A DNA stretch of 64,000 bases from Podarcis melisellensis (taxonomy: Eukaryota): assembly GCA_964234715.1 (NCBI GenBank), contig OZ174282.1. One strand, 5' to 3'. A program made the translations under genes and the position numbers. Position 1 is the first letter of the stretch. Each line of letters begins with the position of its first letter. The notes beneath the pieces are model-generated. The model saw nothing but the letters and a program-made list of their open reading frames with translations. It was not told the DNA's origin and did no database searches. Positions 3,701 to 52,400 of the stretch are shown in pieces.

Positions 3701-6700
3701 TTTCTTCCAGAAAATATTTTGGGGTGTTTCTGTTGCTTGCACAAAACTGCTCCCGCTTCTCCACAGTCCTGATTCCCATGTCTGTATGTTTCATTGGATG
3801 AATGTTTTTATTCCTTCTATGCTGCTCCTTTTAAAATGTCATATCCTGCCCTTCTGCCAAGCAGCTAAGTCAGTGACCTCCTCCTTGCTTTGCAGACTTT
3901 TGCCCTCCACTTGAGTAACACATAAACAGGTCTTACGCCAGTCTGGATTCTGGTGCCTTCCAAGCAACTAGGCCAGTCCAGTAGCTTCTGCCCTTTGGTT
4001 GTGTTTTTGACTTTGCCCTGAAGGAATGTGCATAATAAAAGCCAGAGCCCCCACCAACAGCCCTGACCCAGACTTGTTAGGAAGACAGGAGAACTAGCCT
4101 CGTGATGAAAGGATTCTTGTGCAAAGAAAGAGTTTTTCAGAGGCAGTTTTTCAGGGTTGTGATCTGGGCCTGTGCCCGGGGGTGGAGAGGAGCCAAAAGT
4201 GATTAGAAGCAAACAGGGTTCTAGGTCAAAGAGGAAAAGGCAGTGGGTGGGATGCGTGAGAGTGAGAGTGAAGGCAGAGCAGCCCTTTCAGGCCAAAGGG
4301 AAGGGCTGGGTTGATGGCAGGGGGATCCTCATTGCATCTCTTACATATTTTTAGAGTAAATGTAGATAGAGAACCCAGCAGAAGCAATGGGATGCATAGG
4401 AGGAGGGTCTTTACCATTTCTGAGTGTCGTTTTCTTTTGATAATTACATTCAGGGCTGCTTTGCCACTGGGGCAGAGCATTCACATGCAGATAAACCGAT
4501 GTGGGTGTATCTATATTGGCTGAAGCAAGGATCTATTTTTGGTATTCTGCTTCTCACACCTACTTCCTAATATTGTTGAGGATGAGACATCATGGAAAGG
4601 TGCTCAATCACTTTTGATTAACCCCTCTCCATGGCATGGTTCCTACTCAAAGGGTGCCCAGGATAGCTTACAACATAGAACAGGATAAAACCACCAGCAA
4701 AATACAATAATTAAATGGCCATTATCATTCTGCAGGCCTGGACAAATAAAAGGACTTCAAGTGATGTTAATAATGTGAATTCTACCCCATGCTTTATCAT
4801 GTCTGATTATACATTTTTAAACTATAAAAACATGGTGTAATATTTGAAACCAAATTAAACCAAAACAAGGTCCTTCTGTCCTTTCCTACGCCAGCTTCAG
4901 AAAGGAAGAGGGCTCCCAACTATAGGTAAGTCTTCTCTCCATTGGACCCCTCCTGCCTCCCACAAGGGATTCACCTGGCAACTGGTAAACAAGCAGGATC
5001 TCTTCCTCAACACTTGTTCTTGTTCCTTGCAGGTGGAGGGTGGCAGGACCAAGTGGGTGGGCTGGTGCCAGGCCTCAAGATCGGGCGTTCAAAGCCTCAG
5101 CTGCCACTAAAGGTAGAAGTGGAGCAAATCACCGTCCCAGAGGGCTTCATACACACCCTGAATGAGCACCTGCTCCTGCTGTACACGGGCAAGACCCGCC
5201 TGGCCCGAAACCTGCTCCAGGTACGGAAGGTGCTTGGAGGTGCCAGTTGTGGCCTGAGGTCCACAGCTCTGACGTACCTTAGAGCAGAGAGTTCTACCTG
5301 TCCTACAACAGGCGTACTTTTCTCCCTGTGCTGTTGGCATGATGCATTTCATCCTTCAGTTTTGGTCTACACAGGTAGGATGACTCACCTGGTAGGGTTG
5401 CATGTATTCTTATTAACACTTTTCTTATTGTTTTATTACTTTCCCTAAGGTAATAAACCTAAGGTCCTAGAGTCACGTAAAATGCAATTTATTTTATTAT
5501 TTATTTCAATTATATCCCACCTTTTCCTCCAAGGAGCTTGAGGTGGCCAACATGGTTCTCTCCCTTCTCAATTTAATCTCCATTAACAACCCTATGACGT
5601 AGGTTAGACTTGAGAGGCACTGACTGGCCCCCAAGGTCACTCCGTGAGTCTCATGGTCATGTGGGGATTTGAACCCTGGTCTCCCAGGTTCTAGTCCAGC
5701 GTTCTAACCAATGGCTCTCAATTTAAAACACCAGGATGGCTCTCAATTAAAACACAATGTTAAAAAGAGTATTTTTACACTGGCACTTTCCCCAAGGTGC
5801 AGGAAGGTGGTTGTAGAGGAGGAATTTGCTAAGCCTTTCTCCCTCTAAGCACTCTTGAGCACCAGAAACGGAGACAACTTTTAATTGCTTCCTTTTCTTT
5901 CAGGATGTTCTAAGGAACTGGTATGCCCGGCTTCCCACCATTGTGCAGAATGCCAGCGCACTGGTGAACAACGCAGAGGAGTGTGCCCAGGCCCTTCAGC
6001 AAGGTACTGCAGTTTGTTCCTTGGGCATCTTGTTCAGCTCATTACCCAGGGCAGAGGCTGTAGTGCCTCTGCTCAAAACATCTTGTGCAGAAACCACCTC
6101 CTATGCTGAACAGGCTCTCATTTTGCAGGAGCTACTAGGATAGTTGTGTGTGCGTGCATGTGCATCAGAGCAATTACTCCAGGCAACAACCAATGGGAGT
6201 GGGAGGGGGGCATCTTTTAAGATGTCATCATGGACTTTAGCCTTCCCGAAATTGCTGTAGCCCAAAACATCTGGAGGGCAAGCCCCATCAGCCCCAGCCA
6301 GCACTCACTGGTTTGGGGAAAGCAATTCTATCTAGCTGGATCTTGTAGTGCTCCTCTTGCTAGATTGAAAGCAACAGAGAAGCAGCAGGGAAGAGCAGCC
6401 AGAGCTACTATCTTCCCACTTCTGTGGTGGGCAGCCCAGCCCAGGTGTCAGATTTCCCCAGAAGGAAGAAGGCTGACATGCACACCATGTGATTAGAGCC
6501 AAGAGCACTGTCTGGCTGTATCTGACAGGGAAAGGAGACCTAGCAACTTTGCTCTAAGATGGGCTAATCGTTCAGTGCCAGTGTCCTGTAACTCCTTCTT
6601 CTCACCCCAGGCAACCTGGCTCTCTTGGGCAAGTGTATGAATCATTACTGGCTGCAGAAGAAGAATATGGCCCCTGGGTGTGAGCCTTTGGCTGTCCGGC

Positions 6701-8390: not shown

Positions 8391-26047
<17,657 letters not shown>

Positions 26048-26654
26048 TTTGGCCCCACGTCGTTCTAGAGATAAGAAAATTGAAGAGTCGCGCTCGATTA
26101 GCCAGGAAATGGCGCTTCCGGGCTCCTGAGGACACTTTTTTAAAAAAACATGGTACCCCCCCCCCCCCGCCCGGGCTCTAAGCGTAAACGGATCACAGAA
26201 AACGCGGGATGGCGGCTTTTGCTACTGATCTGTAATTAGATTTCTGCGCCCTCTTTCGCCCAGGAAGCTCACGGATCTCCTCCCACATTTTATTCTCACA
26301 ACCACCCTGCGAGGTAGGCCTACAAGCTGAGAGGCAGCGATTAGCCTAAGGGCAGCCTCTGTCTTCCAAGGCTGAGCTGGGGCGTTGAAGCAGTCTCTGC
26401 CGCAGTCTCCCCTGGCTCTTGATGGCTGCAACGCCTGTTTGACTTCATTTCACTTTGTCTCTCGTCGCCTTTCCTCCAAGGGGCTCAAAGCGCTGTACGC
26501 AGCCTGCATGCTCCACGGGGGCTGCTTTATCCTCACAAAACCCCTGCGAGAGAGACGGGGACATGCCCGAGACCTCCCAAGTCCTGGTCTAACACGGTCA
26601 CCAGGACCCCGCACCGGCTCAGTGCATTTTAGCCCAAGCGTTTCAACATAAAAA

Positions 26655-26795
26655 CAATTTTATTCTTTATACGCCGCCCATCTGGCTGGGTTTCCCCAGC
26701 CACTCTGGGCGGCTTACAACATATATATAAACATCGTCAAACACCGAGCATTAAAAGCTCCCCGATACAGGGCTGCCTTCAGATGTCTTCTAAAA
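26655..26795 (-). mobile_element. LINE 3' tail (L2-like) inside the COG4/SF3B3 promoter interval
   Basis: Minus strand reads agacatctgaaggcagccctgtatcgggagcttttaatg...taagccgcccagagtggctggggaaacccagccagatgggcggcgtataaagaataaaa (stem-loop plus A-rich tail). Family assignment is tentative. Confidence 0.6.
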
Positions 26796-27279
26796 GAATA
26801 CAAGCGGAGAATAAAACCCGCGAGGCAACGGAGCACAGCCAGACAAAGGCTGGCAGGAGAATGGACAGAAAAAACAGTGAAGCTCTTAGAAGGTGGGGAA
26901 AGCACAGCGTCCAAAAGTGAATCCGGCTTCCGGCGTCCGTGTATACGTCTACCCAAAATAGACTATAGCAGACAAATCGTCACATCCGGGAACATTAATA
27001 TAGGTGCCTAAGCTATTGCCTGTGTCTCGGGGTGGGGGTGGGAAAACAACCACCAACAGCGGCGTTTCTATTGCAGAATAAAATGGTGAGATTATTTCCT
27101 GAGCAAAACAACAACAACTCTAGGCTAAAACGGGTGAAGTGGAACAGTCCAAGCCGCGCGGGGGTTGCTTCTGGCACGCCGTGGCCAGCCCAATCGCTCT
27201 GTTCCGCGCTACTTACGTGGAAGGACCCAAGGAGCGCGGGAGGCAGCTGAGGCAATGGCGGTGCTTGACTGCGGGCTGT

Positions 27280-27503
27280 GGAGGAAGTGAAGCAGCGGCA
27301 GGATCCGCCGCCATCCGCGCTGTTCCTGCGGTAAACGCTGCCAGATCCCTTTCAGAATTAGGCTGCAAATTCTCTAATCCCCGGCGGGAGGAGGTCATGG
27401 CGTATTTGTAGGCTGCCACGCTCGTGGTGTTACCGAGGCCCTTGAGTGGACCGTTGCTGGGCGACGCCGGTGCGGGCGGGAAAGAGCTCTGGACAAGCAG
27501 GCG
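27280..27503 (+). other. SF3B3: Probable non-coding first exon(s) of SF3B3
   Basis: GC-rich sequence downstream of YY1/ETS motifs, with candidate donors GCG|GTAAAC (27331) and GCG|GTGAGG (27504). The first coding exon is entered through acceptor cagcag 28461-28466, ~35 nt upstream of the ATG. The TSS and exact boundaries are not determinable from sequence alone. Confidence 0.5.
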
Positions 27504-28499: not shown

Positions 28500-31400
28500 A
28501 TGTTCCTTTATAACCTAACTCTGCAGCGAGCCACCGGGATCAGTTATGCCATCCATGGCAACTTTTCAGGTACTCAGTTCTGACTGAAAGCTTAGATGAA
28601 AGGTGAAAGCAAAGTCTGGTTAAATTAGACATAGCATGTATTTCTGCTGAAGTTGTATACCTGCAATTTTGTTTAGAATGGCAGAGATACTATTTCAGGA
28701 TTCTTATAGAATATGGGATCTCAACTTTGTCATATTTTTCTGGGCCAAATAAACTAAGTTTTCTGAACCTCTTCAGACATCAGGCAGTGGTTAGGCTTGC
28801 AACGTTCACTTTTCTCCTTGGCTTATCAAAAGGCAAGGAAGGGCAAGGTTAAGTGGCCACACATCATGTATATGGATAGCAGAGCAATATGCTTTTGAAA
28901 AGTAAGCAACTTGTCTGCTGACCTCCAATTCTGATTCAAGATTTGGCATTCTGATTTCTGGTCTGCATCACAATTTCAGGACAACTACTTATGTGTTCTC
29001 TCTGTAAAAAGTGGTCACAACTCAGGTAGGGAAAACAAACCTACAAGGCACTTTTGAACTTGTAAGCAGCAATAGGAGGTTTGATAGAGAAGTGCTGATG
29101 CTTTGGCCATCTTCCTCTTTGGCTGATGATCAGGTTTTTCTTTTCTTTTTAGGTACCAAACAACAAGAAATTGTTGTTTCTCGAGGCAAAATCTTGGAGT
29201 TGCTTCGTCCTGATCCGAACACAGGAAAAGTTCATACTTTGCTGACAGTGGAAGTCTTTGGAATCATTCGCTCTCTCATGGCCTTCAGATTAACTGGTGG
29301 AACCAAAGACTACATTGTGGTGGGCAGTGATTCAGGTCGCATTGTTATCTTGGAATATCAGCCCTCAAAAAATGTGTTTGAGAAGATTCACCAGGAAACC
29401 TTTGGCAAGAGTGGATGTCGCAGAATTGTTCCTGGACAGTATTTGGCTGTGGATCCTAAGGGGCGAGCTGTCATGATCAGTAAGTTGGGATGGTTGTTTT
29501 CAGTGGTAGCTGTATAATACTGTTGAGTAACTGAATGGGAGAAATGATTTGGATAAGAAACATTGGTTGGTTTTTCTATTCTTGGTCTAGGTTTTGAAAC
29601 CCCTCCAATCAAAAGTGCTTTTATTGGCGATCCCAGTGCAACTAGATCTGTGTTGCAAATGGGAACTGAGAAGTTGTGAGTTTCCTTAGGCCATCTAAAT
29701 GAGTTTGTGGTTGAGTTGATATTTAGACCAGGGTTTCCCACTTTATACTCTTAGCCACTCCAGCTAGATTTACTCTCAGCCAATCAGGGTGATTCCATGT
29801 TACGAAGAATTTGTTGGAATGCAGCATAATTCAAAATACTTCCCTTCTATGCATTTGGTACTTGATGTGGTTATGTGTATGACTGCTGAAAACTGAACTA
29901 GAAATAGAGCTAAGTTTGCTTAATGGGATGTAAGTGGAGCCTTCTGTGGGTGTCAGTTTGAAGAAAAGCACTTAAGCCCCATATAACTGGTGCAACAGTT
30001 TTCTCTTCCCTGAAGTGATGATTAGGAATTCATGTCTCTTCTCTGACATAAGACGTGGAGACATTTGGATCTAATTCTGATCAGGTTCTCATCATAAATG
30101 CCCATTTTCTTATGCATGCATCATGCCATTTTTTTAAAGCTGAAATGTAATTTTGGGGTTTGATACAAATCTTAGTAGCTAAAGTAGATCTGTAAAAACA
30201 TTGAATGTTGAGCATGGTTTTCTAATTGTTTACCATCCTGTGATGTGAAAAAAGTTGTCTTCAGGTGAGCCTCCACTGCCATGGCTATAAGATCATATGC
30301 AGCTACCTTAACGCCACTTTTCCTTTATATGGGGCTGCACTATGACAATGGCAGTTATGGCTCTTGTAGTCCAGAAGAGGATGGGTGTGCGAAACCCAAT
30401 CCTGCTGTGGTTCAACTTCTAATGTTAAACTGGTTTAGTGTTACATCTGAATGCAACTACTGGTTCTTCCAACAGGAAAGTAGCAGGGGAAAACTGCTGT
30501 GTCTTGAGAGGGCTGCAAGGCCTGCTTATGCAAAAGTAGGGATTGGGCACCTTAAGCATTAAAGTGCAGACATCATCTGCTTCTGTAATCCTAATGTTCT
30601 CTCTGTCTAATCTCTTCATAGGTGCCATTGAGAAGCAGAAGCTAGTGTACATTCTGAACAGGGATGCTGCAGCCCGACTCACAATTTCTTCCCCATTAGA
30701 AGCGCATAAAGCCAACACCTTGGTTTACCATGTAGTTGGAGTAGATGTGGGGTTTGAAAATCCCATGTTTGCCTGTCTGGAAATGGATTATGAGGTATTG
30801 GGGAATTCGTCTCTCTGGTGACTTCCCTGCTCAACTGTGTGTCTCTTTTTAAAAAATGCAACTAACCTTGTTGACTCCTTTGTCAACAAAGTCAACTGTC
30901 CATCTTCAAGTTCTCCAATATGCTTAGTATGCCCTTCTTATAAATAAGCTGTCTTTCATCGTATTCTCCATAATACAGCAAAATAGAGATTTCTCTGGAT
31001 GGCGTGGAGGAGGCCTCCAGTGCAACCATGGGTTAGGTCCCCACTATCAGAGTTAGGCAAGTCACATGACTGAGTACATAAACAGATCAGAAGGGCAAGG
31101 AGGGAAACAGGCCTTGGTGGGCAAGCAAGCAATTGCAGAGAGCAAATGCTCTCCAAAGGTGTCCAAGTCCTTGACTTTGGGCTTAGAACACAGCTTACGA
31201 TCAGAGGACACCTCACCTGAATTTGTACTAGTATTTTGTTCTTAGTGGCATATTAATAGCAACAACAGTATTACTATTTGTTGTGTATATAGTGTCATTT
31301 ATGCACCGGTATGATATATTCCTGTAACCTAAGAGATTTCTGTTCTAAAACAGACACAGGGAAACAGTAGAGGAATTGGGGAGGCAGGTGAAGAATGTGT

Positions 31401-34400
31401 GTTTGTTAATTATGTCAGCTCTGGATACATGTGGGACTGGCACTGTAAGACAGGAGTTGCATGGATGTCTGTTGAAGTGCTTTGCAGTGTTTTTATTGGT
31501 TAGTTTGATTATAAGTTTATATTAGAGGTCTCTGTACTGCCCTTCACCAAAATAGTCACAGGGTGGTTTACAAAGAACAAAACATAATTTTATTTTTTAT
31601 AAGTAATTCTTATATATTATGTTCCATTGATTTTGTGGCAATAGGGTCAGTTGCTGCACCAGATAAACAGGCAGGTGGCAGACTGAATAATCCGTTTCTG
31701 AACTATTGGATATTTTAATTTTTTATTCCTGGCAGTTTTTGTTTCGGGACCTTCACTTACAGTGCAGGCAAACCTTTTCAGTCTGCTTTATTACTCTTAA
31801 TTTTTTCATTTTATTATGAACATTTATATAGTATTCTTCAGTTGAAATTTCCAGGACAGCTTACGCTAAAAATGCATCTAAAAGTATGTTCTCTTACGAG
31901 GCAGAGTATGACACTAATTTATTGTTGGTACATGTATTGTTTTCCACAGGAAGCTGACAATGACCCCACAGGAGAAGCGGCAGCCAACACCCAGCAAACC
32001 TTGACATTTTATGAGTTAGATCTGGGTTTGAACCATGTTGTCAGGAAATACAGTGAACCCTTGGAAGAACATGGCAACTTCCTCATTACAGGTACTGCTA
32101 CCATTTCCGTCCTTTTAGGGAAAAGGCTTTATCCTAAGATGTCAGAAAGAGAACTGCTTGAGACAAATGCACATTTTCTGTAGGCTCAAGCCATACTTGA
32201 TGAATGAAAATTAGATATCCTTGATAGTTGCTTTTGTGCCATGCTTTACAAAAGTGAAACAAGTATTTCCACTCTATGCTCTACACTGGAAACCTAAAGT
32301 AGGTTAAAAAGTGGAGACCTCTGTTAGTAGGCAGAAATCATCAGATTCATGAAAGCTCACCATGTGTAACCCTCTCACTCCTGTGCTTTTCTTTGCTACC
32401 CTGATGATTGTCTGCACCTTAGCCCAAACCATGACATTTGTCTTACTGCAGCAGACATTCGAACACGAATACATTGCCACCAAGTAGTCTGGCAGCCAGG
32501 CCAATACTGGACAGGGCAGGATTGCCCGGAGGGCCAGCCAGAGTAGGAAAGCTGGCTTGCCAGCCAGTTGGGTAACACTGGATATTTGCAAGTCCCTTCT
32601 TGCTTTCTCTTCCTCTGCTTGAACACAGACCCCTCTTCAGCCTGAAAATGGTGGCAAACTTGTGCAGTTTTTTCTCAAGTGTACCTTGGGTAAACCAGTT
32701 CCACAAGAACCAGACGAAACTATAGATGGAGCTGCTCTTCTTCAGCTTCTTACGACATGTTTCTTTTATTTGTCAGTCCCTGGAGGTTCTGATGGTCCCA
32801 GTGGAGTGCTGATTTGTTCTGAAAACTACATCACCTACAAAAATTTTGGTGACCAACCAGATATCCGATGTCCCATTCCCAGGAGAAGGGTAAGGATCTT
32901 GTAGCCTTTTTCACCCTAAAGGAATATCCCAGTAGCATTCTCTGGGCAGCTGAAAAAATGGTTCACCTTTCAAGTTTGGCCAGAAAACGCAGCATTTGTA
33001 TGAAGATGAATGCATTATTAACAAAGCTGTGTAGGCTCCATTGAGGTCCTTAGTGAACTTGGGCTTCCATGGAGTGGGGAGTGGGTCTTCCCATGCCACA
33101 CCTTACTTGTTAACTCCTTTTCCATATCAGCTAGAAAGAGCTGGCAGCAAAAGGTTGACTTATGATTTTGCAAAATTCCCAAAATTCTCTCAATGCTTGC
33201 TAAGACTTTTAGGGACCATTAGGAATTTGAATCTATGTAACAATATATCTGAAGAGTCCACAAGGGACTGTGCTGCCTGAGCTAGGCAGGCAGGCCACCA
33301 TTGCCACCTCCAGCAGCTGTGCTGGTAGACTTTGCAATAATTGTGGATGAGGTTGCTCTAGAAAGTGCATGCTCCATCACCACTTTGTCATAACTGTGGG
33401 AAATACTCTTTTTGCTTTCATCACAGCAAAATGGCAGCAATGCAAGCACTTTGCAGGGTGATCTTGCCCACTGTGCCTTATTCTGAGCAAGGTGTGAGAT
33501 AGGCACCAAGGAGAGCATTTGGGTTATCCTTGCTTTATGGGAGGAAGGACCCAGTTGAATGGCTAGCAGTAGTGGCAGCTGGTGATGGAGGCAGGTCATT
33601 TGAGGGTAGGGGTGCCTAGTCTTCAGCCTGAGTTATGTGGTGTAGAGTGGCTCATTATAGGACCAGCCACAAAAATATTAATTTCCTAGTAGCTGAAACC
33701 ATTATGATAGAAATTATTACTTAAATATGGAAGTTCTGCTAATTGTAAACTGAAAGTGAAAACGCTGTTGTGGCTTGATGTGATGAGTTGATGTCTCTTC
33801 TCTGATGCTTATTGTGGAGATGGCATTTCTTTCTGATCAAGCATTTTTGGTGATTACGTACTTGGTGCTGTGCAGGATACAGAAGACACTGTCTAAAGGT
33901 TTTTAAATTTCAAATCTATATTAGACAGTCAAGAGACATTACTGAGAGAGGGCTGTACCTCCCATCTGGTGGAGTTGGGGTACAGTCTCCTTTGTTGCTT
34001 TAGCCGTCAGGCAGCAACTACAAATGGTCCTCTTTCAGAGGGTGTTTGAGACCCTTGAGCTGCAGTTTTAAGGTTCATGTTTTTGTTGCACTGCAAACCA
34101 TTGCTTTGTCTGTTCTTTTTGTTGGTAGTTTAATTTTATGTTTTAATGTTTACTTGTAAGGTCTCTTGAAGTGCTTTGACAAGAATTGGGAGATAGAATT
34201 AATTTAATAAATAGATCATGTTGGAAATTGATATTTGATGGGGTGGGGAGAGCTGGACCCAAGGATTGTGAGGTTTATAGCTCCTGCAAGGCCCAGTGAA
34301 AGAAGCAAGGGAAGTGGCTTGATAGAGGGCTCGGGAGCAGCATCCCAGAAGGGCCCAGCAAGGAGGACTAGCAGGAGAAGAACTTTCCCAGAATGGAAGG

Positions 34401-37400: not shown

Positions 37401-40400
37401 TATGATGCTTCGAAAGTGATAACCATCTTAATCGAACAACCTGTCACCTTTCCTCTCTTATCCCTGCATCTTGGCTGCTTTCTGTGCAGATAGCTGATCT
37501 GGCTAATGAAGACACCCCTCAGTTATATGTGGCCTGTGGGAGGGGGCCTCGGTCGTCACTGAGGGTCCTTAGACATGGACTTGAGGTAAGAAGGGCAGGA
37601 CATGAAGAGCAAAGCCATTCTGGATCTTCCTCTTGGGTGAAACCTTTTTTGTTAGATGAGAATGGATTCACTGGTGTATTCTGAAGCTGAGTAGAGCTAG
37701 AACAGGCATAGGCAAACACTGCCCTCCAGATGTTTTTGAGACTACAATTCCCATCACCCCTGACCACTGGTCCTGTTAGCTAGGTACGATGGGAGTTGTA
37801 GACCCAAAACATCCGAGTTTGCCTATGCCTGGGCTAGAATGTCAGCCTAACTGATCTCACAGTTTGGTTAGATTTTAGAGCCAGGTGGGTGAATCACATT
37901 TGCTGCACTGTGTGAGAATGTCATAAGAAGTCATAAATAGCATGTGCATTGGGGATTTTGGAGAAATATACTGAGCTAGATTTTCCAGTGGTTGGGTTCA
38001 GTGTAAAACATTTTTATAGTGGTTGAAGGACAGAATAATTCTTTTGTTTTCTCCTGTGTAATAGTAATAATTAGGTCCTTTTTATTTGGTGGAGAAAAGC
38101 TCTGTTTTAAGCTTTTTAGCATTAATAAAATATGTCTTTCTCTAGGTATCTGAAATGGCCGTCTCAGAGTTGCCTGGTAACCCCAATGCTGTATGGACAG
38201 TGAGGAGGCATGTTGAAGGTAGGAGGTCTTCTGTGATGCAAATGCAGTGGTAAATGGCACGTTGAATTTCATTGTTCATCTACAAGTCACCTTACTTGGT
38301 TCAGCTGTCTTTGCCTGGAGAGCATCTACCTGCCTCAGGATTATGACTTTCATTCTTAAACTGGAGTAAACACAAATGTTTTGTGAAAATTGCACATACC
38401 AACTCGGAGAGAAAATCTGCCTGTTTGTAGGTTTTTAGGAGTCCCTCCCTGCTGAGAGCAGGAGCACTGACAATGCTGTTGCCCCTCTTGCTATGGATGT
38501 AGTGCATTCTGTTCAGTGATCTCTTGGCAGTGTTGCCTTTAAGCTCACTGCTGTGGCCTTTCTTGGTGTCTCTTAGTATATGATTATGATCTTTACCACT
38601 CATGGTGTTCCTTCAGCCTCCACCCCCGCCTTTCACTGGAATTGTCTTTGCCATACAGCCTTTGGTATCTTATGTGCTACTACGCCTTCTGTGTGTTCCT
38701 GGAATCTCTGCTGGGGCAGTGAACCTGGGCGGCTGTCCCGGGACATTCTGTCTTGGGGTGTATTATTGCAATAGAACCTGACCTGTCTGTGGAAGAAGAA
38801 GAGGCCTTAATGCACAATCCTAGGCTTATGGTGGTAACATGATTGTTTCGCTCAAAAGCTCCATGGACAGCACAATTATGACTCTTCATACTACATCATT
38901 TGCTTAATCATGAAAGAGTATTGTGCTTTTTTGGAATTAGGGGAAGTTGTAATGCCCTTCCTTGAAGGCATGTCTGAGAAATAACCAGGTACCCCTCCTG
39001 ACTTGCATTTGCCATTTGCTGAAGGCCCTTGCTCCTCATTTTGTATGTGTGTTGTTGTTGTTTTTCTTCTTCATATATTAATCTGTCCTCTGTGATGGAG
39101 TCAAAAGTGTGTATGGTCTTCAGACAGGACATCCGTGCTGTTCTCAGCTGTCTAGTTAGCACAGAACTTTGGAAAGCCAGGACCTGTTTTGATCAGCCTT
39201 TCTGTATTTTCAGCAGTTCAAGATTTGCTCTGAAAATGCTTTCCAGACCTGTCATTCACATGGCTGGTGGTCAGGAAAAAAAAAATGCCCCTGTGAGACT
39301 TTTCCCAGACAGCAGCTGGTTTTTCATGGAGTGGAATTTAGAATCTTAGAGTTGGAAGGGACCCAAGGGCCATCTAGTCTAACCCCCTGCAATCTCAGCT
39401 AAAGCGTCCATGGCAGATGGCCATCCAACTTGTTTCATGTGTGAAAATAAATTTATTATATGTGGACTTCAGTGCCTCATAAATGTTTGGGTGACCCAAG
39501 TGAGTCCCAGCTCTCACGTTACAGTGTGATTGAGTAGAATACATTGGTCAGGAGGATAGCTTTACTGGTTCAGTTTCGCATCATGCACAAGGTTGTTTGA
39601 TGCACTTAGTATTTATTAATGGCTCCCTCTAACCAGGTGTGTGCCAGTTTTTGCCATGTAATGTGTTAATGAAATGGCTTGGTGTCTAAAAAATGCTAAG
39701 CCATGGTTTCTTAAACCATGGTTGGGTTGTACCCTGCCCAGTGGCTTAACTATGGTTTGTTTACTGCCAACAAGCCACAATTTGAAGCCGTGGGTTCTTG
39801 TTGGCTTTGGAACCTTGTTTAGTTTTTAATTACAGCTTGCTATTATGTATGAATCCACCACATTTCCTCAATCACTATTTCTTTGGCCATCTCACCACCT
39901 CCTCACTAAGCTACCAAGACATGTGGCAAGATCAGCTTGAAAAGAAACCAAACTTGGGAAAAGAAAGCCATGGTTTGTTTTATTATCTGTGGTACAACTT
40001 GTGCCATATACATGGTCAAACAAACAATGACTTCACTTTGTGTGCAAACCAGGCCAGTAGTACAAAACTGACTTGGTCATAATGTGGTAATCCTGCCTGT
40101 GTCTGGCTTGTGCTTCTGAAGTTCTGCATTCTCTCATGTTACATGTGTACCATATGAACCCCTTCCAAGCAAAAACTAACCTTGGCTGGTATGTGGTCCC
40201 TGCTACTACCAATACCAAGCCTTCTTTTTTCTTCCACAGGTGGCTGGTGGTGGAGGTGCTGATCCCCTCCCACAGGTGTGTACCTACAGCCAGGGGCTGT
40301 AATTGGAGGGGGGAGGAAGAGGCACAACCTTGAGGCTCTTTTTAAATTACTTTTCTTGCAAACACCTCTTTCAGCAAACTATGTAAGAAGTCAGTATCCA

Positions 40401-43400
40401 AGTACCATCTGAGTCCTCAGCCCTCTCCTGAGCTGGGATAAGAACTGGCTTTTACTGTCCAATTGCTTTCCACATCCTTGGGGTCTTTCTCAAGATAAAG
40501 TTAAGCTTCACATGCCTGTAACTATAAGGAACTGCCATCTTTTCTTGCCCACTGGTTCTGGGCATTCCAGTATTTTAATGGGGGTGGTGAGACCAAGTTC
40601 ACGTTTAGAGATGTTAAAGTCTAGATATTCATTATACCATATTCTTCTACACCCCAGAGTTCTGGGTTTAGTGACTCTTGTTCCTTACCAGAGTTCCCAC
40701 TCTGGGTACAAAATGAACAATACAGGCAGCTGTCTGATGCGCTGTTGACATATGATGGACCTTGTCTGCTCACTCACCCTGTTGGCCTCACCTTGCTCTG
40801 TGCTGAGAAGGAGAAAAGAGGTGCTGCTTGCCTGTCTTGATTCCTCTCTGGCTTGACTTCTTTCCCCTGCCTTTCACAGGAAGTTGGTGGTGGTGTTACC
40901 ATTTCACTGCTGCTCACAAAATGACTTACAAGACTATTTAAATACAGCATAGCTTATGCAGCAGTTAAAATCCATGTGCAAAGTTAAGAGGCATGAGATC
41001 ACGGGCATATCTGTAACTTTTAAACAGTGATATTTCAAGTACTTCTCTGATCACTCCCTCCCTCACTCAAAACTTTGCTGATGCTGTCTTTTATGGAGCA
41101 GTCAGACACTGGGCATAAGTTTCATTTAATTTTTCCAAGAGAGTTTGGGCTAGGAAAGCCATGTATGCACTGTCGTTAGAGCTAACAGGTTACTTCTGTA
41201 ACCACAAGAAAGGAATCTCAACAAAAATTAATGTTTGTGAATGAATTCCCAGTGCTAATGATACTGTTAACAATCTAGTCCATGATGAACTTCTGACTAC
41301 TCGGACACCACGATTTTCCAAATAATTGATTTGCTTCTTGTGTTTAAAAGGGGTAAATTCAATTGTGTAGATAAAATGAGGGATGAAGCTGCATGGGAAC
41401 CCCGATAGTTGTCCAGGAGCGCCCCCTCCCCCAAAAGCTAGTTCTGGCAGCTGTTGGGTGCCAGCAGACTGAGGACAGTGGGGGTGCTTTGTGAATAAGG
41501 AAGCCTTGCTGCCTGCGTTGCTGAACCTTGTGCATCCATTACAGTCGAATGCTTATGACATGGGTGAATCTGAAGACCTGAGTGCCTCGATTTGGAACTG
41601 TGTTAGGAGTCTGTGGAGGACTTGGGTGGCGGCTTTAGCCTTTATTGTGACAGAGAGGAGCACATGTCATGGACTTCTGCACTGAGGTGGGAGTAAGTTC
41701 CACTCAGGTCAGCAAGTAAAAGGGTGAATGGCTTTGCTTTTGCCAACCTTAGGGCTCTCTCATCTGTTTTGGACTATCAGCTGTGCTAGGGAAGCTGCAA
41801 CCCAAAGCAGCTGAATGGGCATGAGTTTGGTGAAGGCTATACAGTAAGCCTGAAATTTGGGGGGGGTATATTATGGGGAAAGCACCAAAAGCCAAAATCA
41901 CATATGGCCAAAACACATTGGAGGATATTGTGAAAGTCGTCCCCCCCCCTCAGATGCCTGCCCCCCTTTTAATTTATTTGCCAAGCACAAAACTGAATTC
42001 GCACAAATTAAATATATGTAAGTTACTTGTACATGGAAAGCAGCTACACAAGCCTAGGTGACAGGAACACGGAAGCAGCCATTGGGCCATTGGCTCAGTA
42101 TTCTCTACCCTAACTGGCCGTGTCCCTGCAGGGCTTTCTTTTAGGAGGTATTAGCAGCTCTACTAGGGATTGCACCAGCAGGGGAAATGTTTTCTGCTAT
42201 AGTGGTAATTTCTAAATGGTTTCATTGGCAGAATGAATGTGAGGAAACTGAACAGTGACGTGTCTGTTAAAATGTTACATATTTATTTGTTTATTATTAA
42301 ATTTGTTAGTCACTTTATATTTCCCAAGGCAACCCAAAGCAACTTACAGCCAATTAAAATTCATATTAACATATCTATGCATTGTCTAAATCCTGTGTAA
42401 TCTCTGGCACTATATTTAAAACATGTGAATAAGCTATTTTGTTTCTATGGATAGAGGACAACTGGAAAGTGTTCATGTATCCATTTCCAAGCTGAGTGGA
42501 CACCATGTTAGTTAACATTACAGTCTCTTCTTCAGCCCCACTTTTTTTTTATTTCAATTGAATCCATGTTGCCCCCCTGGTATCTCCATCCTTGGCAGTA
42601 TTGCTGTTTAATTCTTCCTTTTAGCCCCCATTTATTTCCATAAAACTGCAGCCAAATTCTTTCCCTTCTGCCCCTTGAACAAGAAATCCCCTTGGTCTTT
42701 TTGGTGGTAACTAAACCGGACTTGCCACTTAGCATCTACTGTTGAAGCCTGAACTCTAGGGAGGACAACTGCTTGACGTGGAGTTCCTGTAGGGCTCCAT
42801 TGTGGGAAGATGCAAAGAGAAGAGCATCTTGATGCAGAAGTGCAGATCTTGCCACCATGGGCACATCTCTTTCTAGTGGCTTCTAATCTTGCATTTTGAT
42901 GGTTCAATGCAATTTATACTTGTGAAGCCATAGAAGTTTCTCTAGCTCTGCAAAAGCCTGCTCTGACTCAGATTCCTCAATCTGGCGCTTAATAGTTCAG
43001 TGGCATTCTGGGTTTTTTTTTTTCCCTTTCTGGAATGTGGAAAGAAGGTGTGTGGATTCTTACTATTAACTTCTGGTGGAAAGATCTAAAATCTGTGAGA
43101 GGTTGCTAACCATTTGTTCTCTGAGCTTCCATCTGCTTCATTAGTTCATTGTTTTTGTAATAGTGTTTTGTTATCCCTCCTGCCAACTCCATCATTTTTT
43201 TAAAAAGAACTAAATTAGCTGCATCTCATATGTTTTAGTTAAGTTACATTGTCCGGGTTGGTGTATTTTTTATTAACCTGTGGGATTTATTTTGATCTAC
43301 ATCACAATTTTTGTTTGACAGATACTCTGTGTTTGTGTGTGTTATTTAGAGAGAGCAAATGAGAATAAACTGTTCTGTTGGCTGCAGGCATAAACGTCTT

Positions 43401-46400
43401 GTCTGATCATTTTCTTGTGGTTAGGAGGAGAGCAAGAAACTGTTTTCACTACAGTTGTATTCTGACCCAGATGTGATTATGATATAAATGGAGGGGGGAG
43501 GGAGAGGCTCTCAAAGAAGGTCCACACTTCTTGCTGTATCTTCCTTGTGCCTTGAGTATTCTTCTCCTTTTACCACAGTCCAAGTGTCTGAAGGCCATGC
43601 TGCCCCTTTGTCATGAACTTGTGTGTGATGGTGATGATGGAAATAACTGTAGTAGCCTTTGTGAAGAGTTTCTGTTGTCCATATTTGTTCTACAAACCTC
43701 TTTCTTGACCTTCTAAATATTGGCACCCGTATTCTTTCTTCTGCAATTAGATGAATTTGATGCCTATATCATTGTGTCCTTCGTCAATGCCACCCTGGTA
43801 CTATCTATTGGAGAAACTGTAGAGGAGGTTACAGACTCGGGATTCCTTGGTACTACGCCCACCTTGTCTTGCTCATTGTTGGGAGATGATGCTTTGGTGC
43901 AGGTAAGGGGCCTTTTACCTCTGAGTGTTCTGCTTGCCTTTTGCAGCCAGGCCCGTTGGCCTTCTCAAGAGATGCAAGGAGAGGGTTTGGTTGTGGTGCT
44001 CTCCTGGCATGGATGGGGTGGTGGTAGCTTATTTAATAGTTGTGACCTGCAAACTGGCTAGAGAATAAGGTCACCTTTAACGTTGGGAAAGGACTCTTTC
44101 CAGAGCCTTTCAAAGTAAGATTCCCTTGGTGTTCCGCTCTTACTAAAAAACGTTTAGTCTTCTACTGCATTATTTTAACTGGCTGCATAGACTAATATTC
44201 CCTGTGATTTTTGTTTTGTTTTTAAAGGTAGATAGGAGCTTGTGGAATCTTGATCATTTACCTTGGTAGCACTTTTCAAGTTGCTGTTTGTTGACCTTGC
44301 CCTCTCTCAGCTAGATATAATGAGAGCACTTGATGGTGAACGGCAGAAATTAGTTGTGTGAGTGAGATAAAGATTATAGATCATTTTGTAAACTAAAAAG
44401 CTGTATAGGTAGGCATGGAAATCTTGCCATGTGCTTGTGGCAAATGGGCTAGAGATGGGCATTCTGAGTAAGCTTTTGTAAACCAGATAAGAGGTGCTGG
44501 TTCTTCTGCTTCCCTTGTTGACCTGTGGTGTGTCTAAATGACAGTAAAAAACTGTATGCGAGCAAGCAGTTTAGGAAAAAATTAAAAAAGGCTAGGCTGA
44601 TAACTTCTGTGAACTGACTTGCAAGGCTAGCCTAATAATGGAAAGAACAGCAAAGGCACTTCCTGTCAGATGGACTGACTCAGCATCTTATTTCTGTATT
44701 TGTTTAGGTTTATCCTGATGGCATCCGGCACATCAGAGCAGATAAAAGAGTTAATGAGTGGAAAACACCAGGGAAGAAAACCATCGTCAAATGTGCTGTG
44801 AATCAGAGACAAGTGGTGATCGCACTGACAGGGGGAGAGCTGGTCTACTTTGAGATGGACCCGGTACGTGAGCTTAGCTGGAGGGAGATGTGACTTTCAT
44901 GAGGGTTTGCAGACTAGGCTTGCAGTGGAAACAAATGAGAACTGCATCACAGCACTATTGGGCTCCTTATGTCGCATTCCTTCATTTCAGGGGTTCTTGT
45001 GCAGAATAACTTTCAGGTAATTTGTGCTATTTGGGTGGGGTGGGTGTTTGGGGGTTGCTTTGGTGGGCCATTGCAGAGACTGGCATATTTTTTAAGACCA
45101 GCTTATCTCTGATAAACTTGGTGTTCTCCAAAGTGCTCCAGGCTTCCTACCTCAAAAGGTCAAACAAGCAAGGTCACCTGTCATCATACCTGGTTTAAAG
45201 AATTTACTGCACAGCTCTTGATCTGAAATGAGTCTGGTTCTGCTAATCCAGGTGTGACTTCCTTCCTCCATTGTGCCTTTTTTCCACACCAGTCAGGGCA
45301 GCTGAATGAATACACAGAGAGGAAGGAGATGTCTGCTGATGTGGTGTGCATGAGCTTGGCCAACGTTCCCCCAGGAGAGCAGCGCTCCCGGTTCCTTGCT
45401 GTTGGGCTGGTGGACAACACTGTGCGCATCATTTCCCTCGATCCCTCTGTAAGTGCTTCCTGAGAGTCGCTTGCCTGTAGCTAAGCCTTTGCTGACCCAA
45501 ATTAAAGTATTGTAACCAAAACTACCCCCCCCCAAAAAAAAACTGAGTGAGAGGAAGTTCCAGGGGTGGTTAGCAGGGCTTTCCTTTCTTTGGATGTGAG
45601 AATGCACTAGACTGACTTTGGTTTGTTATCTAATATGAAAGGAGAGCATATTGGAAGCAAGCAGACTTATAAAGTGGGCAATACAACTACTGGTGCTTCG
45701 TCAGAAACCCCAAAGGCATGGCTTACTCCTCCAGTACCCCAATATGTCTTCCAATTTTAGCTGACTCCAGCTGAACTCTAGCATGCTCTTTTCCCAACCC
45801 AAACTGCAGTTGCTTTCTCTCCCCTCCCCTTCTTTTTTTTGATACCCTGCCTCTTAATTTGAAGGTTCAGGCATTCCAAAGGGCTTGATGCCAGTAAGGC
45901 ACATCCAAGCCTCTGGTCATGCGTATAATAGCTCAGTTCACAATAATCAAGGTGTATGTTGTACATGAGCTTTCTCCAACCTGGTGACTTTCTGATGGTT
46001 TGAACTACAACTCACCCCAGCCCTAGCCAGTTTGGCTGAGGATTATGGTAGTTGTATTCCAAACTTTTGGAAGATAGTGGGTTGCCTGAAAGAAGGCCAG
46101 AGCTAAAAATGATTCTTCAAAGACTTCCTCAGATGAAATGAATCTTCCCACAGATTGCTCCAAATGGAGAAACACTTTGAGCTGGTTGGCATAATCAACA
46201 TTGCCATGTGCTTCTTCAATCTATCTCTTCAGACTGCTGGGGGATGTGGTTGAATGCCCTCCTACATAGAAAATTGGCAGGTCAGCCTAGTCTTCTCCTT
46301 CAAATGTGCCAGGCATTTTTGTACAAAGGAGAATCCAGCCATTTACAGTTCCTCAGCTGATGTCTGAAGTGGTTCAGGGTAGCAACAAAGACCTTATGTG

Positions 46401-49400: not shown

Positions 49401-52400
49401 GTCGCAACACAGTGCAGAGCAGTGACCACTTTCCTTTCTAGAGAGGAGGCTAGTCTGCTTTTGTAACCCATGGAAAAGCTCACTTTCTGCACCTCAGTTA
49501 GGACTGCCTAATCATCATAATCACAAGAAGCAGTGATGGCCACCAATTTGGATGGCTTTAAAAGAGCATTAAACAACTTCACAGAGAAGTATATTATCAG
49601 TTGCCTACTAACCATGGTGACTATATTCTGTCTCCATTGCCAAAAGCAGCATGCCTCTAAATGCCAGTTCTTGGGAATGACTTAGGTCCTGCTTGGGCTT
49701 CCAAGAGCATCTGCTTTGGCCACTGTGAGAACAGGATGCTGCACTAGAGATAGGTCTTTGGCCTGAACCAGCAGGCAGCACTTATAGTCCTTTTTTGCCC
49801 CTTTGTGCATTGCAGGAAATGGTGGAAGCCGCAGGGGAAGATGAGAGGGAACTAGCTGCAGAGATGGCGGCAGCGTTTCTGAACGAGAACCTTCCCGAGT
49901 CCATCTTTGGTGCCCCAAAGGCAGGAAATGGACAATGGGCGTCTGTTGTCCGGGTGATGAACCCCATCCAAGGAAACACTTTAGATCTAGTCCAGCTGGA
50001 GCAAAATGAAGCTGCCTTCAGGTAAGGAACAGTTTCTGCACCTCTGAAGCAAGTTATCCTTTTGAATGCTGCCCTTTCTGCTAAATAATGGAAATACTCT
50101 TTATACTTTTGTATACTTACTTTGGTCATACTTGAAGTACACCAGTCAAACCAAATATTTACTTGTGCTAGATGACTCTAGAATCTAATTAAATAAAGCA
50201 AAAATGTGGTCTACCTGAAGTTGTTTGGGGTCTTGGGGCTGATACACAGCAGTCATTTACCATGATCTTCTCAGCTGACAACGGCCCTAATTAAGTCTCA
50301 TTCAGTTTGTGTATTGCATTTCTATGCTTCCTTAGTCACAAGCAAATGGTACAACATACTCTTCGCTGCTGCCTTCCCCCAAAGCGTTCTCTCTTGCTCT
50401 TCGTTGCTGTGAAGCAACTGCTTCTTTTGCCTTCCCAGTCTTCCCTTGTCTTGTCAAGTAACATTATCGTTCTGGCTCTCTACAGTGTGGCAGTGTGCCG
50501 ATTTGCCAATGGTGGTGACGACTGGCATGTTCTAGTGGGCGTAGCCAAGGACCTCATCCTGAACCCACGCTCTGTGGCTGGAGGCTTTGTCTACACCTAT
50601 AAGTTGATAAACAGTGGGGAGAAGCTTGAGTTCTTGCACAAGGTGAGAATTTCCTCCACTAGTGGGTTGGAGGGGGAGGAATCTGGGAAGATGAACATGG
50701 ATGGGGCTTGCCAAGAGGTTGCTAAAATGTACTGATGAGACCCAACTCTTTGGGACGGAAATCTCTTGGTTGGGAACAGAGGACCATCACTGTTAGTAAG
50801 TACTCCACAAATGGTTTTCCTTCTGTCCACAAAACAGCAGCCATATCAAAAATCACATTGGATTTTGCCAGTGTTTGCCATGCAAAATGTATGCACATTG
50901 CTTGCTACCAGGGAAATTTGAGCAATTATAGTAATGGTGTGACAGTTGCAGTTATCTAATGGACATTTGAAGCAAAACAAGCATAGACCTGTGAATGGGT
51001 CATTTATAGGTGATCTGACTTAAGCTTTTGCAGCATCTGATGGTGGTTGCTGAATACTTTGGCTTCTGTTGACGTGGAGAAAGCCAACAATGTACAGAGC
51101 ACTGCAAAAGTTTAAGTCTTCCTCCTTGTTGATACCTAGCAGCCTGGACCTGTGTGGAGGCAGGTTCTTTTTGGGGGCAGGAACTGGACTAGGAGGCCCC
51201 TTCCTAGAGGCGGTTTGTCCTTGTGGGCTTGCAATGTCCATCTCTTCCCCAGTGGATGCAATGGGTACTTGATTCAAGTGGGCCCCAAAACTCAGTGGTG
51301 GTGGATCTGCATCCTTTGCCAGGGCAGAAACTTGCCCATCCTTGCAGTGGCAGGGCTTCATCTATGCAGTGAGGGTACTATTAAGGATCTTTGTTTTGTC
51401 TGCTTGACAAAGGCTACTTCTCTTTCATTTCATTTCTGTTCAGACCCCAGTAGAGGAGGTACCAGCTGCTATTGCCCCCTTCCAAGGCAGAGTGCTCATT
51501 GGCGTGGGGAAACTCTTGCGGGTATATGACTTGGGCAAGAAGAAGCTGCTCCGGAAGTGTGAGAATAAGGTATTTAGAACGTGTTGTGTGTGTTTGTGTG
51601 CGCAGATCTCCTGGATGCTGCATTTCCTAAGGCAGACATTCCCTATCGCTTTTAACAAATTTGGTTGAAACCTTTGAACTTTTTTCAAGCTCCAGAGAAA
51701 CGTTCTCTTGCCCAGAACTTTGGCTTCCTTCAAAAATTTAGGAATTAAGCAATTCCTAAATTGCTTAAGGGGTAAGTCTTCAGGGCTGTTTCCACCCTCT
51801 CTGTACCTTATTACATTTCACTGGATAGATAATCATTTTCTTTCCCTTTCGAATAGAATTGAGAATCTGAGGCTCAAAGGTGTGGTCTTGTGTTTCTATG
51901 ATTCACATAAGGTGATAGTTGAAAGTTTTGGATTTTTTTTGTCATTCCTGACACCAACTTTGTAATGGTGTAGTGAACAGTCTGCACAAAAGGGCACAGA
52001 GCAACCTGAAGCCCTCCAAATGTTTTGGACTACAACTCTCATCAGCTGTCAGCGTAGCCAATGGTCAAGGATGATGGGATTTGTAGTCCCAAACATCTGG
52101 CGGGTGCTGGGTTATAGAAAGTAGAAAAAGGAAGATTTTCATATTTCACATATTTGCTTTTCCCTTGTTTGTTTGGCCTTCTGAGTATTCTAGAATCAGG
52201 AGAGCTACCTAGAATGATGTTAGCACTGGTTCTCAGTGTACATTCAGATATAGAAAGTGATCACAGATAAGCAATGTCCCAACTCCCCTTTTCTCTCTTA
52301 GAAAGCTACAGCTGTTGCACTATAAATGATCATAGCTTTGCAGAGAGATGCCCGTGATGTTCAGATTTCATGAAGGCTCAGGAAGGGATTTTAGGGCTTG

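Follow-up and report, generated by a model that had tools for sequence, protein, structure and literature searches.

The 64,000-nucleotide stretch of Podarcis melisellensis DNA analysed here, referred to as the window, carries SF3B3 on its plus strand, with 25 coding exons from 28500 to ~57250 that join into a single frame of 1217 amino acids; the 50 codons at 43753-43902 align to residues 469-518 of human SF3B3 with an E value of 1e-25. Exons and introns are numbered on the assumption of one non-coding 5' UTR exon, as in human. Among the 24 introns that separate coding exons, intron 11 has the greatest length, 5532 nt, the next measuring 1654 nt; the gene model bears out the preliminary description of this DNA in placing it at 38219-43750, in phase 1 and by far the longest of these. 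The poison exon that is the subject of this report sits 2021 nt into the intron. Its stretch has a single match in its own genome, and no open reading frame of note runs across the element by eye. No Rfam family was found in intron 11, so a hosted snoRNA does not explain its conservation. The features of the locus are as follows.

38146..38218, plus strand: SF3B3 exon 11 (coding exon 10), 73 nt, end phase 1, upstream splicing partner of the poison exon; from the gene model and contig joints
38219..43750, plus strand: SF3B3 intron 11, phase 1, host of the poison exon; from the gene model and the skip joint
40174..40180, plus strand: AACTAAC, a near-perfect branch-point or SF1/QKI-type motif, 3 nt before the hairpin, with its A at -61
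40184..40198, plus strand: left arm of the stem, 12 of 15 letters, with three mismatches to the published vertebrate consensus
40199..40206, plus strand: hairpin loop region, an 8-nt spacer separating the arms and more diverged than any other part (rows compared by eye)
40207..40221, plus strand: right arm of the stem, the exact published 15-nt consensus, holding the A's 40211, 40212 and 40217 and the AG 40218-40219
40222..40239, plus strand: polypyrimidine tract and acceptor AG, with the 18-nt spacing from the right arm found in human, mouse and chicken; joint to 40240
40240..40275, plus strand: orthologue of poison exon 11a, 36 nt, with splicing at its 5' end in a relative and a 3' end predicted from homology and motif
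40260..40262, plus strand: in-frame TGA, codon 475; with the exon included, the sole stop ahead of the normal one
40276..40281, plus strand: predicted donor GTGTGT, scoring higher than any other GT up to 460 nt from the acceptor
43751..43902, plus strand: SF3B3 exon 12 (coding exon 11); from the gene model and the human alignment

Elsewhere in the window, COG4 lies on the minus strand with its first coding exon near 25960, head to head with SF3B3 across a GC-rich tract at ~26000-27300; its assignment draws on Pfam COG4_m (E 2e-16), the COG4_C match (E 0.014) being below its cut-off. Two SNORD111-family C/D snoRNAs are found on the plus strand in SF3B3 introns, at 30006-30088 and 33771-33844, scoring 48.2 bits (above the gathering score) and 42 bits (below it). 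Weak matches to mir-5408 on both strands at 37729-37813 and 52018-52098, far below the gathering score, fall on short high-copy repeat fragments that are probably remnants of palindromic transposons.

The exon and its splice sites

The letters from which the preliminary description proposed a poison exon are all as it gave them: ACTAAC at 40175-40180, the tract, the acceptor AG at 40238-40239, CAG/GTGTGT with its boundary at 40275/40276, and TGA at 40260-40262. The joined gene model also upholds its statement that a 36-nt exon would preserve the frame yet carry an in-frame TGA. On inclusion this stop would precede the last junction by 2124 nt and 15 junctions, against a criterion of more than 50 nt ahead of a later junction.

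Splice sites were scored with a small weight matrix built from the gene's own 24 introns, with real sites scored leave-one-out. The acceptor at 40239 reaches 13.7 bits, above all 24 real acceptors, and just two of the 1617 intronic AGs score as high, namely itself and a site at 40880. The donor at 40276 scores 7.9 bits, above 14 of the 24 real donors and a value reached by 14 of 1416 intronic GTs, and its GTGTGT is without A at +3 and +4. An alternative donor at 40255 (5.8 bits) was rejected as weaker than that at 40275; there, too, an early stop would result. The preliminary description held that COG4 uses the GTGTGT donor at two exons, and two minus-strand COG4 coding stretches do end in this way, at 14614 and 10343; a third AG/GTGTGT is present at 5156 on the minus strand. 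Since 25 kb of SF3B3 introns contain 32 pseudo-exon pairs that pass lower-quartile thresholds, along with four copies of ACTAAC, the motifs by themselves are only suggestive, and it is identity with a published conserved element, together with the spliced joint at 40240, that decides for more than chance.

The site at 40880 (40860-40895, plus strand) is the top-scoring intronic AG, at 14.0 bits, and over 23 nt it shows 83% likeness to the acceptor of the poison exon, which stands 640 nt upstream. If joined to exon 11 it would likewise give an early stop; no joint to it is among those listed in the four contig runs described below.

Contigs from 4 of the 24 listed runs (X1, X5, X9 and X10), tentatively taken for RNA and derived from the related organisms A and B, were placed on 38000-44100. 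The normal skip joint from 38218 to 43751 occurs in three of these four runs. The junction from 38218 to 40240, which the preliminary description had proposed as a check, is present as a GT..AG joint in two of them (X1 and X5, from two studies), and the acceptor is used, in a relative, at exactly the predicted base. The short side of these joints is just 26 letters at 90% likeness, and they come from the relative and not from this genome. The joint to 40240 is not listed in X10 or X9, and the joint from 40275 to 43751 is listed in none of the four runs; such contigs drop rare forms. X1 record 5 (from 40238) and X5 record 20 (40238-40926) run unspliced through the proposed donor, so the length of 36 nt rests on motif and homology. 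The donor remains a predicted one that the absent joint does not refute, because contigs drop rare forms and a target of nonsense-mediated decay (NMD) is expected to be rare. Whether spliced or unspliced at the donor, the transcript meets the same TGA. Much of intron 11 is covered by the contigs, some of which extend across its borders into exons 11 and 12, the border with exon 12 being bridged in X5 and X9. A pile-up of contigs at 39340-39430 marks a short high-copy repeat fragment.

The predicted stem-loop and its published counterparts

The element is the orthologue of the human and mouse SF3B3 poison exon 11a, and is thus already published and not new. The preliminary description was right to propose a poison exon subject to AS-NMD, and the acceptor is in use, but the exon is one already in print (PMC11162794; PMC5062968); what it missed is the hairpin at 40184-40221 and the AG at 40218-40219. 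Li et al. 2024 reported that a stem-loop in SF3B3 intron 11 conceals branch sites upstream of exon 11a, with stem arms conserved in 80 vertebrates (PMC11162794). When compared by eye with the human, mouse and chicken sequences in Table S2 of that paper, the last ~80 intronic nucleotides before the lizard exon are near-identical; the exon begins where primers LH196 and Sf3b3-inc_1_R place the human and mouse start, and its end resembles primer LH7.

The right arm is the only match to its published consensus in the window at two or fewer mismatches, where chance would give a mean of 0.13; the left arm taken alone is at chance level, with three matches against 2.35 expected, and here it ends 8 nt before the right arm. 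The human mapped branch sites, at positions 92, 93 and 98 of 120, map onto the A's at 40211, 40212 and 40217. Folded by itself, the 45-nt element reaches -15.2 kcal/mol (z -3.2), with one of 200 shuffles as stable, and the predicted fold has 14 pairs and a 7-nt loop, the published family ranging over stems of 14-17 bp and loops of 5-8 nt. Of the 14 pairs, 13 are kept in the published chicken register and 12 in the human register. The significance of the fold drops in longer folding windows, to z -2.5 at 81 nt and -0.17 at 146 nt, and when the exon is included the probability of the published arm-arm pairing runs from 0.59 down to 0.01 in four folding windows. The AG at 40218-40219 sits within the predicted stem, between ACTAAC and the acceptor. 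Taken with the human and fly experiments described below, the predicted fold makes it likely that the hairpin hides the branch adenosines of the poison exon in this genome as well.

In a human minigene, disruption of the stem raises inclusion from 60% to 87-94% and compensatory changes restore repression, while in fly cells, as in flies, no inclusion is left once five A's of the right arm are mutated (PMC11162794). The passages of the same paper that bear on this exon also report SHAPE-MaP results that back the human and fly stem, lowered inclusion in fly cells on knock-down of U2 and U2-associated factors, and knock-ins that alter SF3B3 protein levels; no demonstration of strict autoregulation by SF3B3 itself was found in them. 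For the rodent exon, which is annotated as a cassette in mouse, cycloheximide raises inclusion in rat cells, the rat event is without nuclear retention, and inclusion is higher in differentiated smooth muscle (PMC5062968).

Human exon 11a shares with the lizard element its gene, intron, stem arms, 18-nt tract, exon start and branch A's (PMC11162794), from which the lizard element departs in three left-arm changes and a different loop. The human exon is also shorter, ~29 nt as inferred from overlapping primers LH196, LH188 and LH7, whereas the 36 nt found here preserve the frame. By eye, the lizard exon has a GTG insertion relative to the human exon, and the first of the two in-frame TGAs of mammals reads TGG, so that the second TGA alone is kept. 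Poison function here therefore rests on a single codon, since the insertion and the change of TGA to TGG leave one stop in an exon whose length keeps the frame. The mouse and rat Sf3b3 exon E11alt (Llorian et al. 2016, PMC5062968) has the same start after exon 11; in mouse it lies ~1937 nt into an intron of 5238 nt, as against 2021 nt into one of 5532 nt, and is listed as a 28-nt interval (28-29 by convention), making it frame-shifting. Exon 5a of Drosophila Sf3b3 occupies a homologous intron, with a stem-loop whose right arm holds the branch A's and a stop-bearing exon downstream, but the primary sequence of its arms and exon is unlike that found here (PMC11162794).

A further core spliceosome gene with a poison exon is SNRPB, when SF3B3 is set among the genes of its machinery. 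The poison exons of SNRNP70 (PMC5062968) and SMNDC1 likewise put a spliceosome component under AS-NMD control, in different genes, and a review's table of AS-NMD genes that are conserved across animals includes SF3B3 (PMC8652244). The passages found in PMC12427521 and PMC4402522 do not concern this exon, and no further primary study of an SF3B3 poison exon was found in the literature searched.

Alternative readings of the element

We consider it unlikely that in this lineage the main role of the acceptor is that of an alternative 3' splice site or decoy, with a slow GTGTGT donor that leaves the 3.5-kb downstream part of the intron in an RNA that would be held in the nucleus or degraded. Such a reading gains from the contigs, in that after the joint to 40240 the only ones listed (X1 and X5) continue unspliced past 40276 and the border with exon 12 is bridged in X5 and X9, and from the donor, where positions +3 and +4 are not A; on either course translation would run into the same TGA. 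Against this, no contig represents a single transcript, rare forms are dropped from contigs, and few molecules of a fully spliced NMD target are to be expected; the donor outscores 14 of the 24 real ones and two COG4 exons end in the same hexamer; and the relevant passages of PMC5062968 give the mouse annotation as a cassette and the rat event as one without nuclear retention. In the literature searched, nothing was found on an SF3B3 decoy exon with intron retention. The other uses of the acceptor are less probable still. Recursive splice sites typically have strong donors and belong to much longer introns. The preliminary description had suggested such a site because both ends of the exon read AG/GT, and the acceptor is indeed spliced; but removal of the 5.5-kb intron in two steps through a zero-length exon would use the re-made donor AAG/GTGGCT, which is far from consensus by eye, and the orthologue is a documented cassette exon, so that the suggestion is unsupported and we regard it as very improbable. 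A pseudo-exon arisen by chance, for which the 32 pairs passing lower-quartile thresholds in the introns might speak, is ruled out for practical purposes by the exact published 15-mer, the conserved spacing and exon start, and the spliced joint.

A different question is which adenosine is used. The preliminary description took ACTAAC for the branch point, and A 40179 is the best match to U2 within 80 nt upstream of the acceptor, with 5 of 6 pairs as against 4.5 and 4. It could be the main branch point, with the hairpin shortening the distance from A to acceptor from 60 nt to ~19 nt and hiding the AG at 40218-19, or the motif could be a site where competition between SF1 and QKI tunes the exon. 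The motif is predicted to be unpaired (0.8-1.0); to the eye, UACUAAC is found at the corresponding position in human, mouse and chicken, and primer LH161 has a CTAAT-type motif ahead of the fly left arm; the human deletion primer LH10 retains the motif and shortens its distance, and SF1 and QKI compete at ACUAA sites (PMC13004596). The human mapped branch sites, however, fall in the right arm and not at UACUAAC, the motif stands at -61 with an AG between it and the acceptor, and the experiments in PMC11162794 run the other way: breakage of the stem raises inclusion and its restoration lowers it, the opposite of what a bridging role would give, and inclusion is lost, both in fly cells and in the fly, when the five A's of the right arm are mutated. 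The parts of PMC13004596 that were searched do not name the SF3B3 poison exon. Table S2 covers concealed sites only, and so cannot exclude use of the upstream ACTAAC. We conclude that ACTAAC at 40175-40180 is probably not the main branch point, and either of the principal roles just outlined for it seems to us improbable.

A further feature is that the first bases of the exon repeat TGGCTGGT of the left arm, an 8-mer of which the window, counted on both strands, holds 11 copies. In folds that include the exon, the right arm can pair with the exon, covering the acceptor, with a probability for this register of 0.00, 0.82, 0.68 and 0.39 in four folding windows; because the value depends on the window folded, the pairing is only a lead. 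The search in PMC11162794 folded only the last 120 intron bases, to which such a pairing would be invisible. The text of that paper mentions UACUAAC only as the yeast consensus, and no paper on UACUAAC in SF3B3 was found in the non-subscription literature searched. Tentatively, the two features may be read together: UACUAAC would be a second branch site or SF1/QKI site, and pairing between the right arm and the first ten bases of the exon would loop out the tract and cover the acceptor, making the element a two-state switch and not a single hairpin. Both would be features conserved in amniotes and so far unreported, and the exon as found here, frame-preserving, would stand a single codon away from a coding micro-exon of 12 residues. 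We consider this joint reading doubtful.

A possible feedback gate on SF3B3

The reading that we prefer, with a probability of roughly 0.85, is that 40184-40281 comprises the orthologue of the published exon 11a and a stem-loop that likely hides its branch adenosines, that the exon is mostly skipped, and that its inclusion would trigger NMD. The arms, the tract, the acceptor and the stop are all present, and among the contigs of the relative exon 11 is spliced to exon 12 in some and to 40240 in others. The arms are predicted to pair in the lizard RNA, as they have been shown to do in human cells, and would thereby cover the A's at 40211, 40212 and 40217. By extension from human and fly, where U2 snRNP and U2AF are plentiful or the stem is open, U2 would engage these A's and the exon would be included; the donor at 40276 would then close the 36-nt exon, and the TGA, 15 junctions before the last, would lead to degradation of the message. 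A fall in U2 factors would in turn cause the exon to be skipped and more full-length SF3B3 to be made. If the same gate operates here, it would amount to negative feedback from the supply of U2 snRNP to the output of SF3B3.

On this evidence another vertebrate lineage carries, in intact form, the feedback element published for this core protein of the U2 snRNP and splices at its acceptor, and a real regulatory exon has been recovered from raw sequence. The lizard version offers a natural variant of the element, in which the left arm is altered at three places, the length keeps the frame and one stop alone is left. The upstream UACUAAC and the pairing of exon with arm, if true, would refine both the understanding of how the hiding of branch sites is tuned and the targeting of antisense oligonucleotides to this exon.
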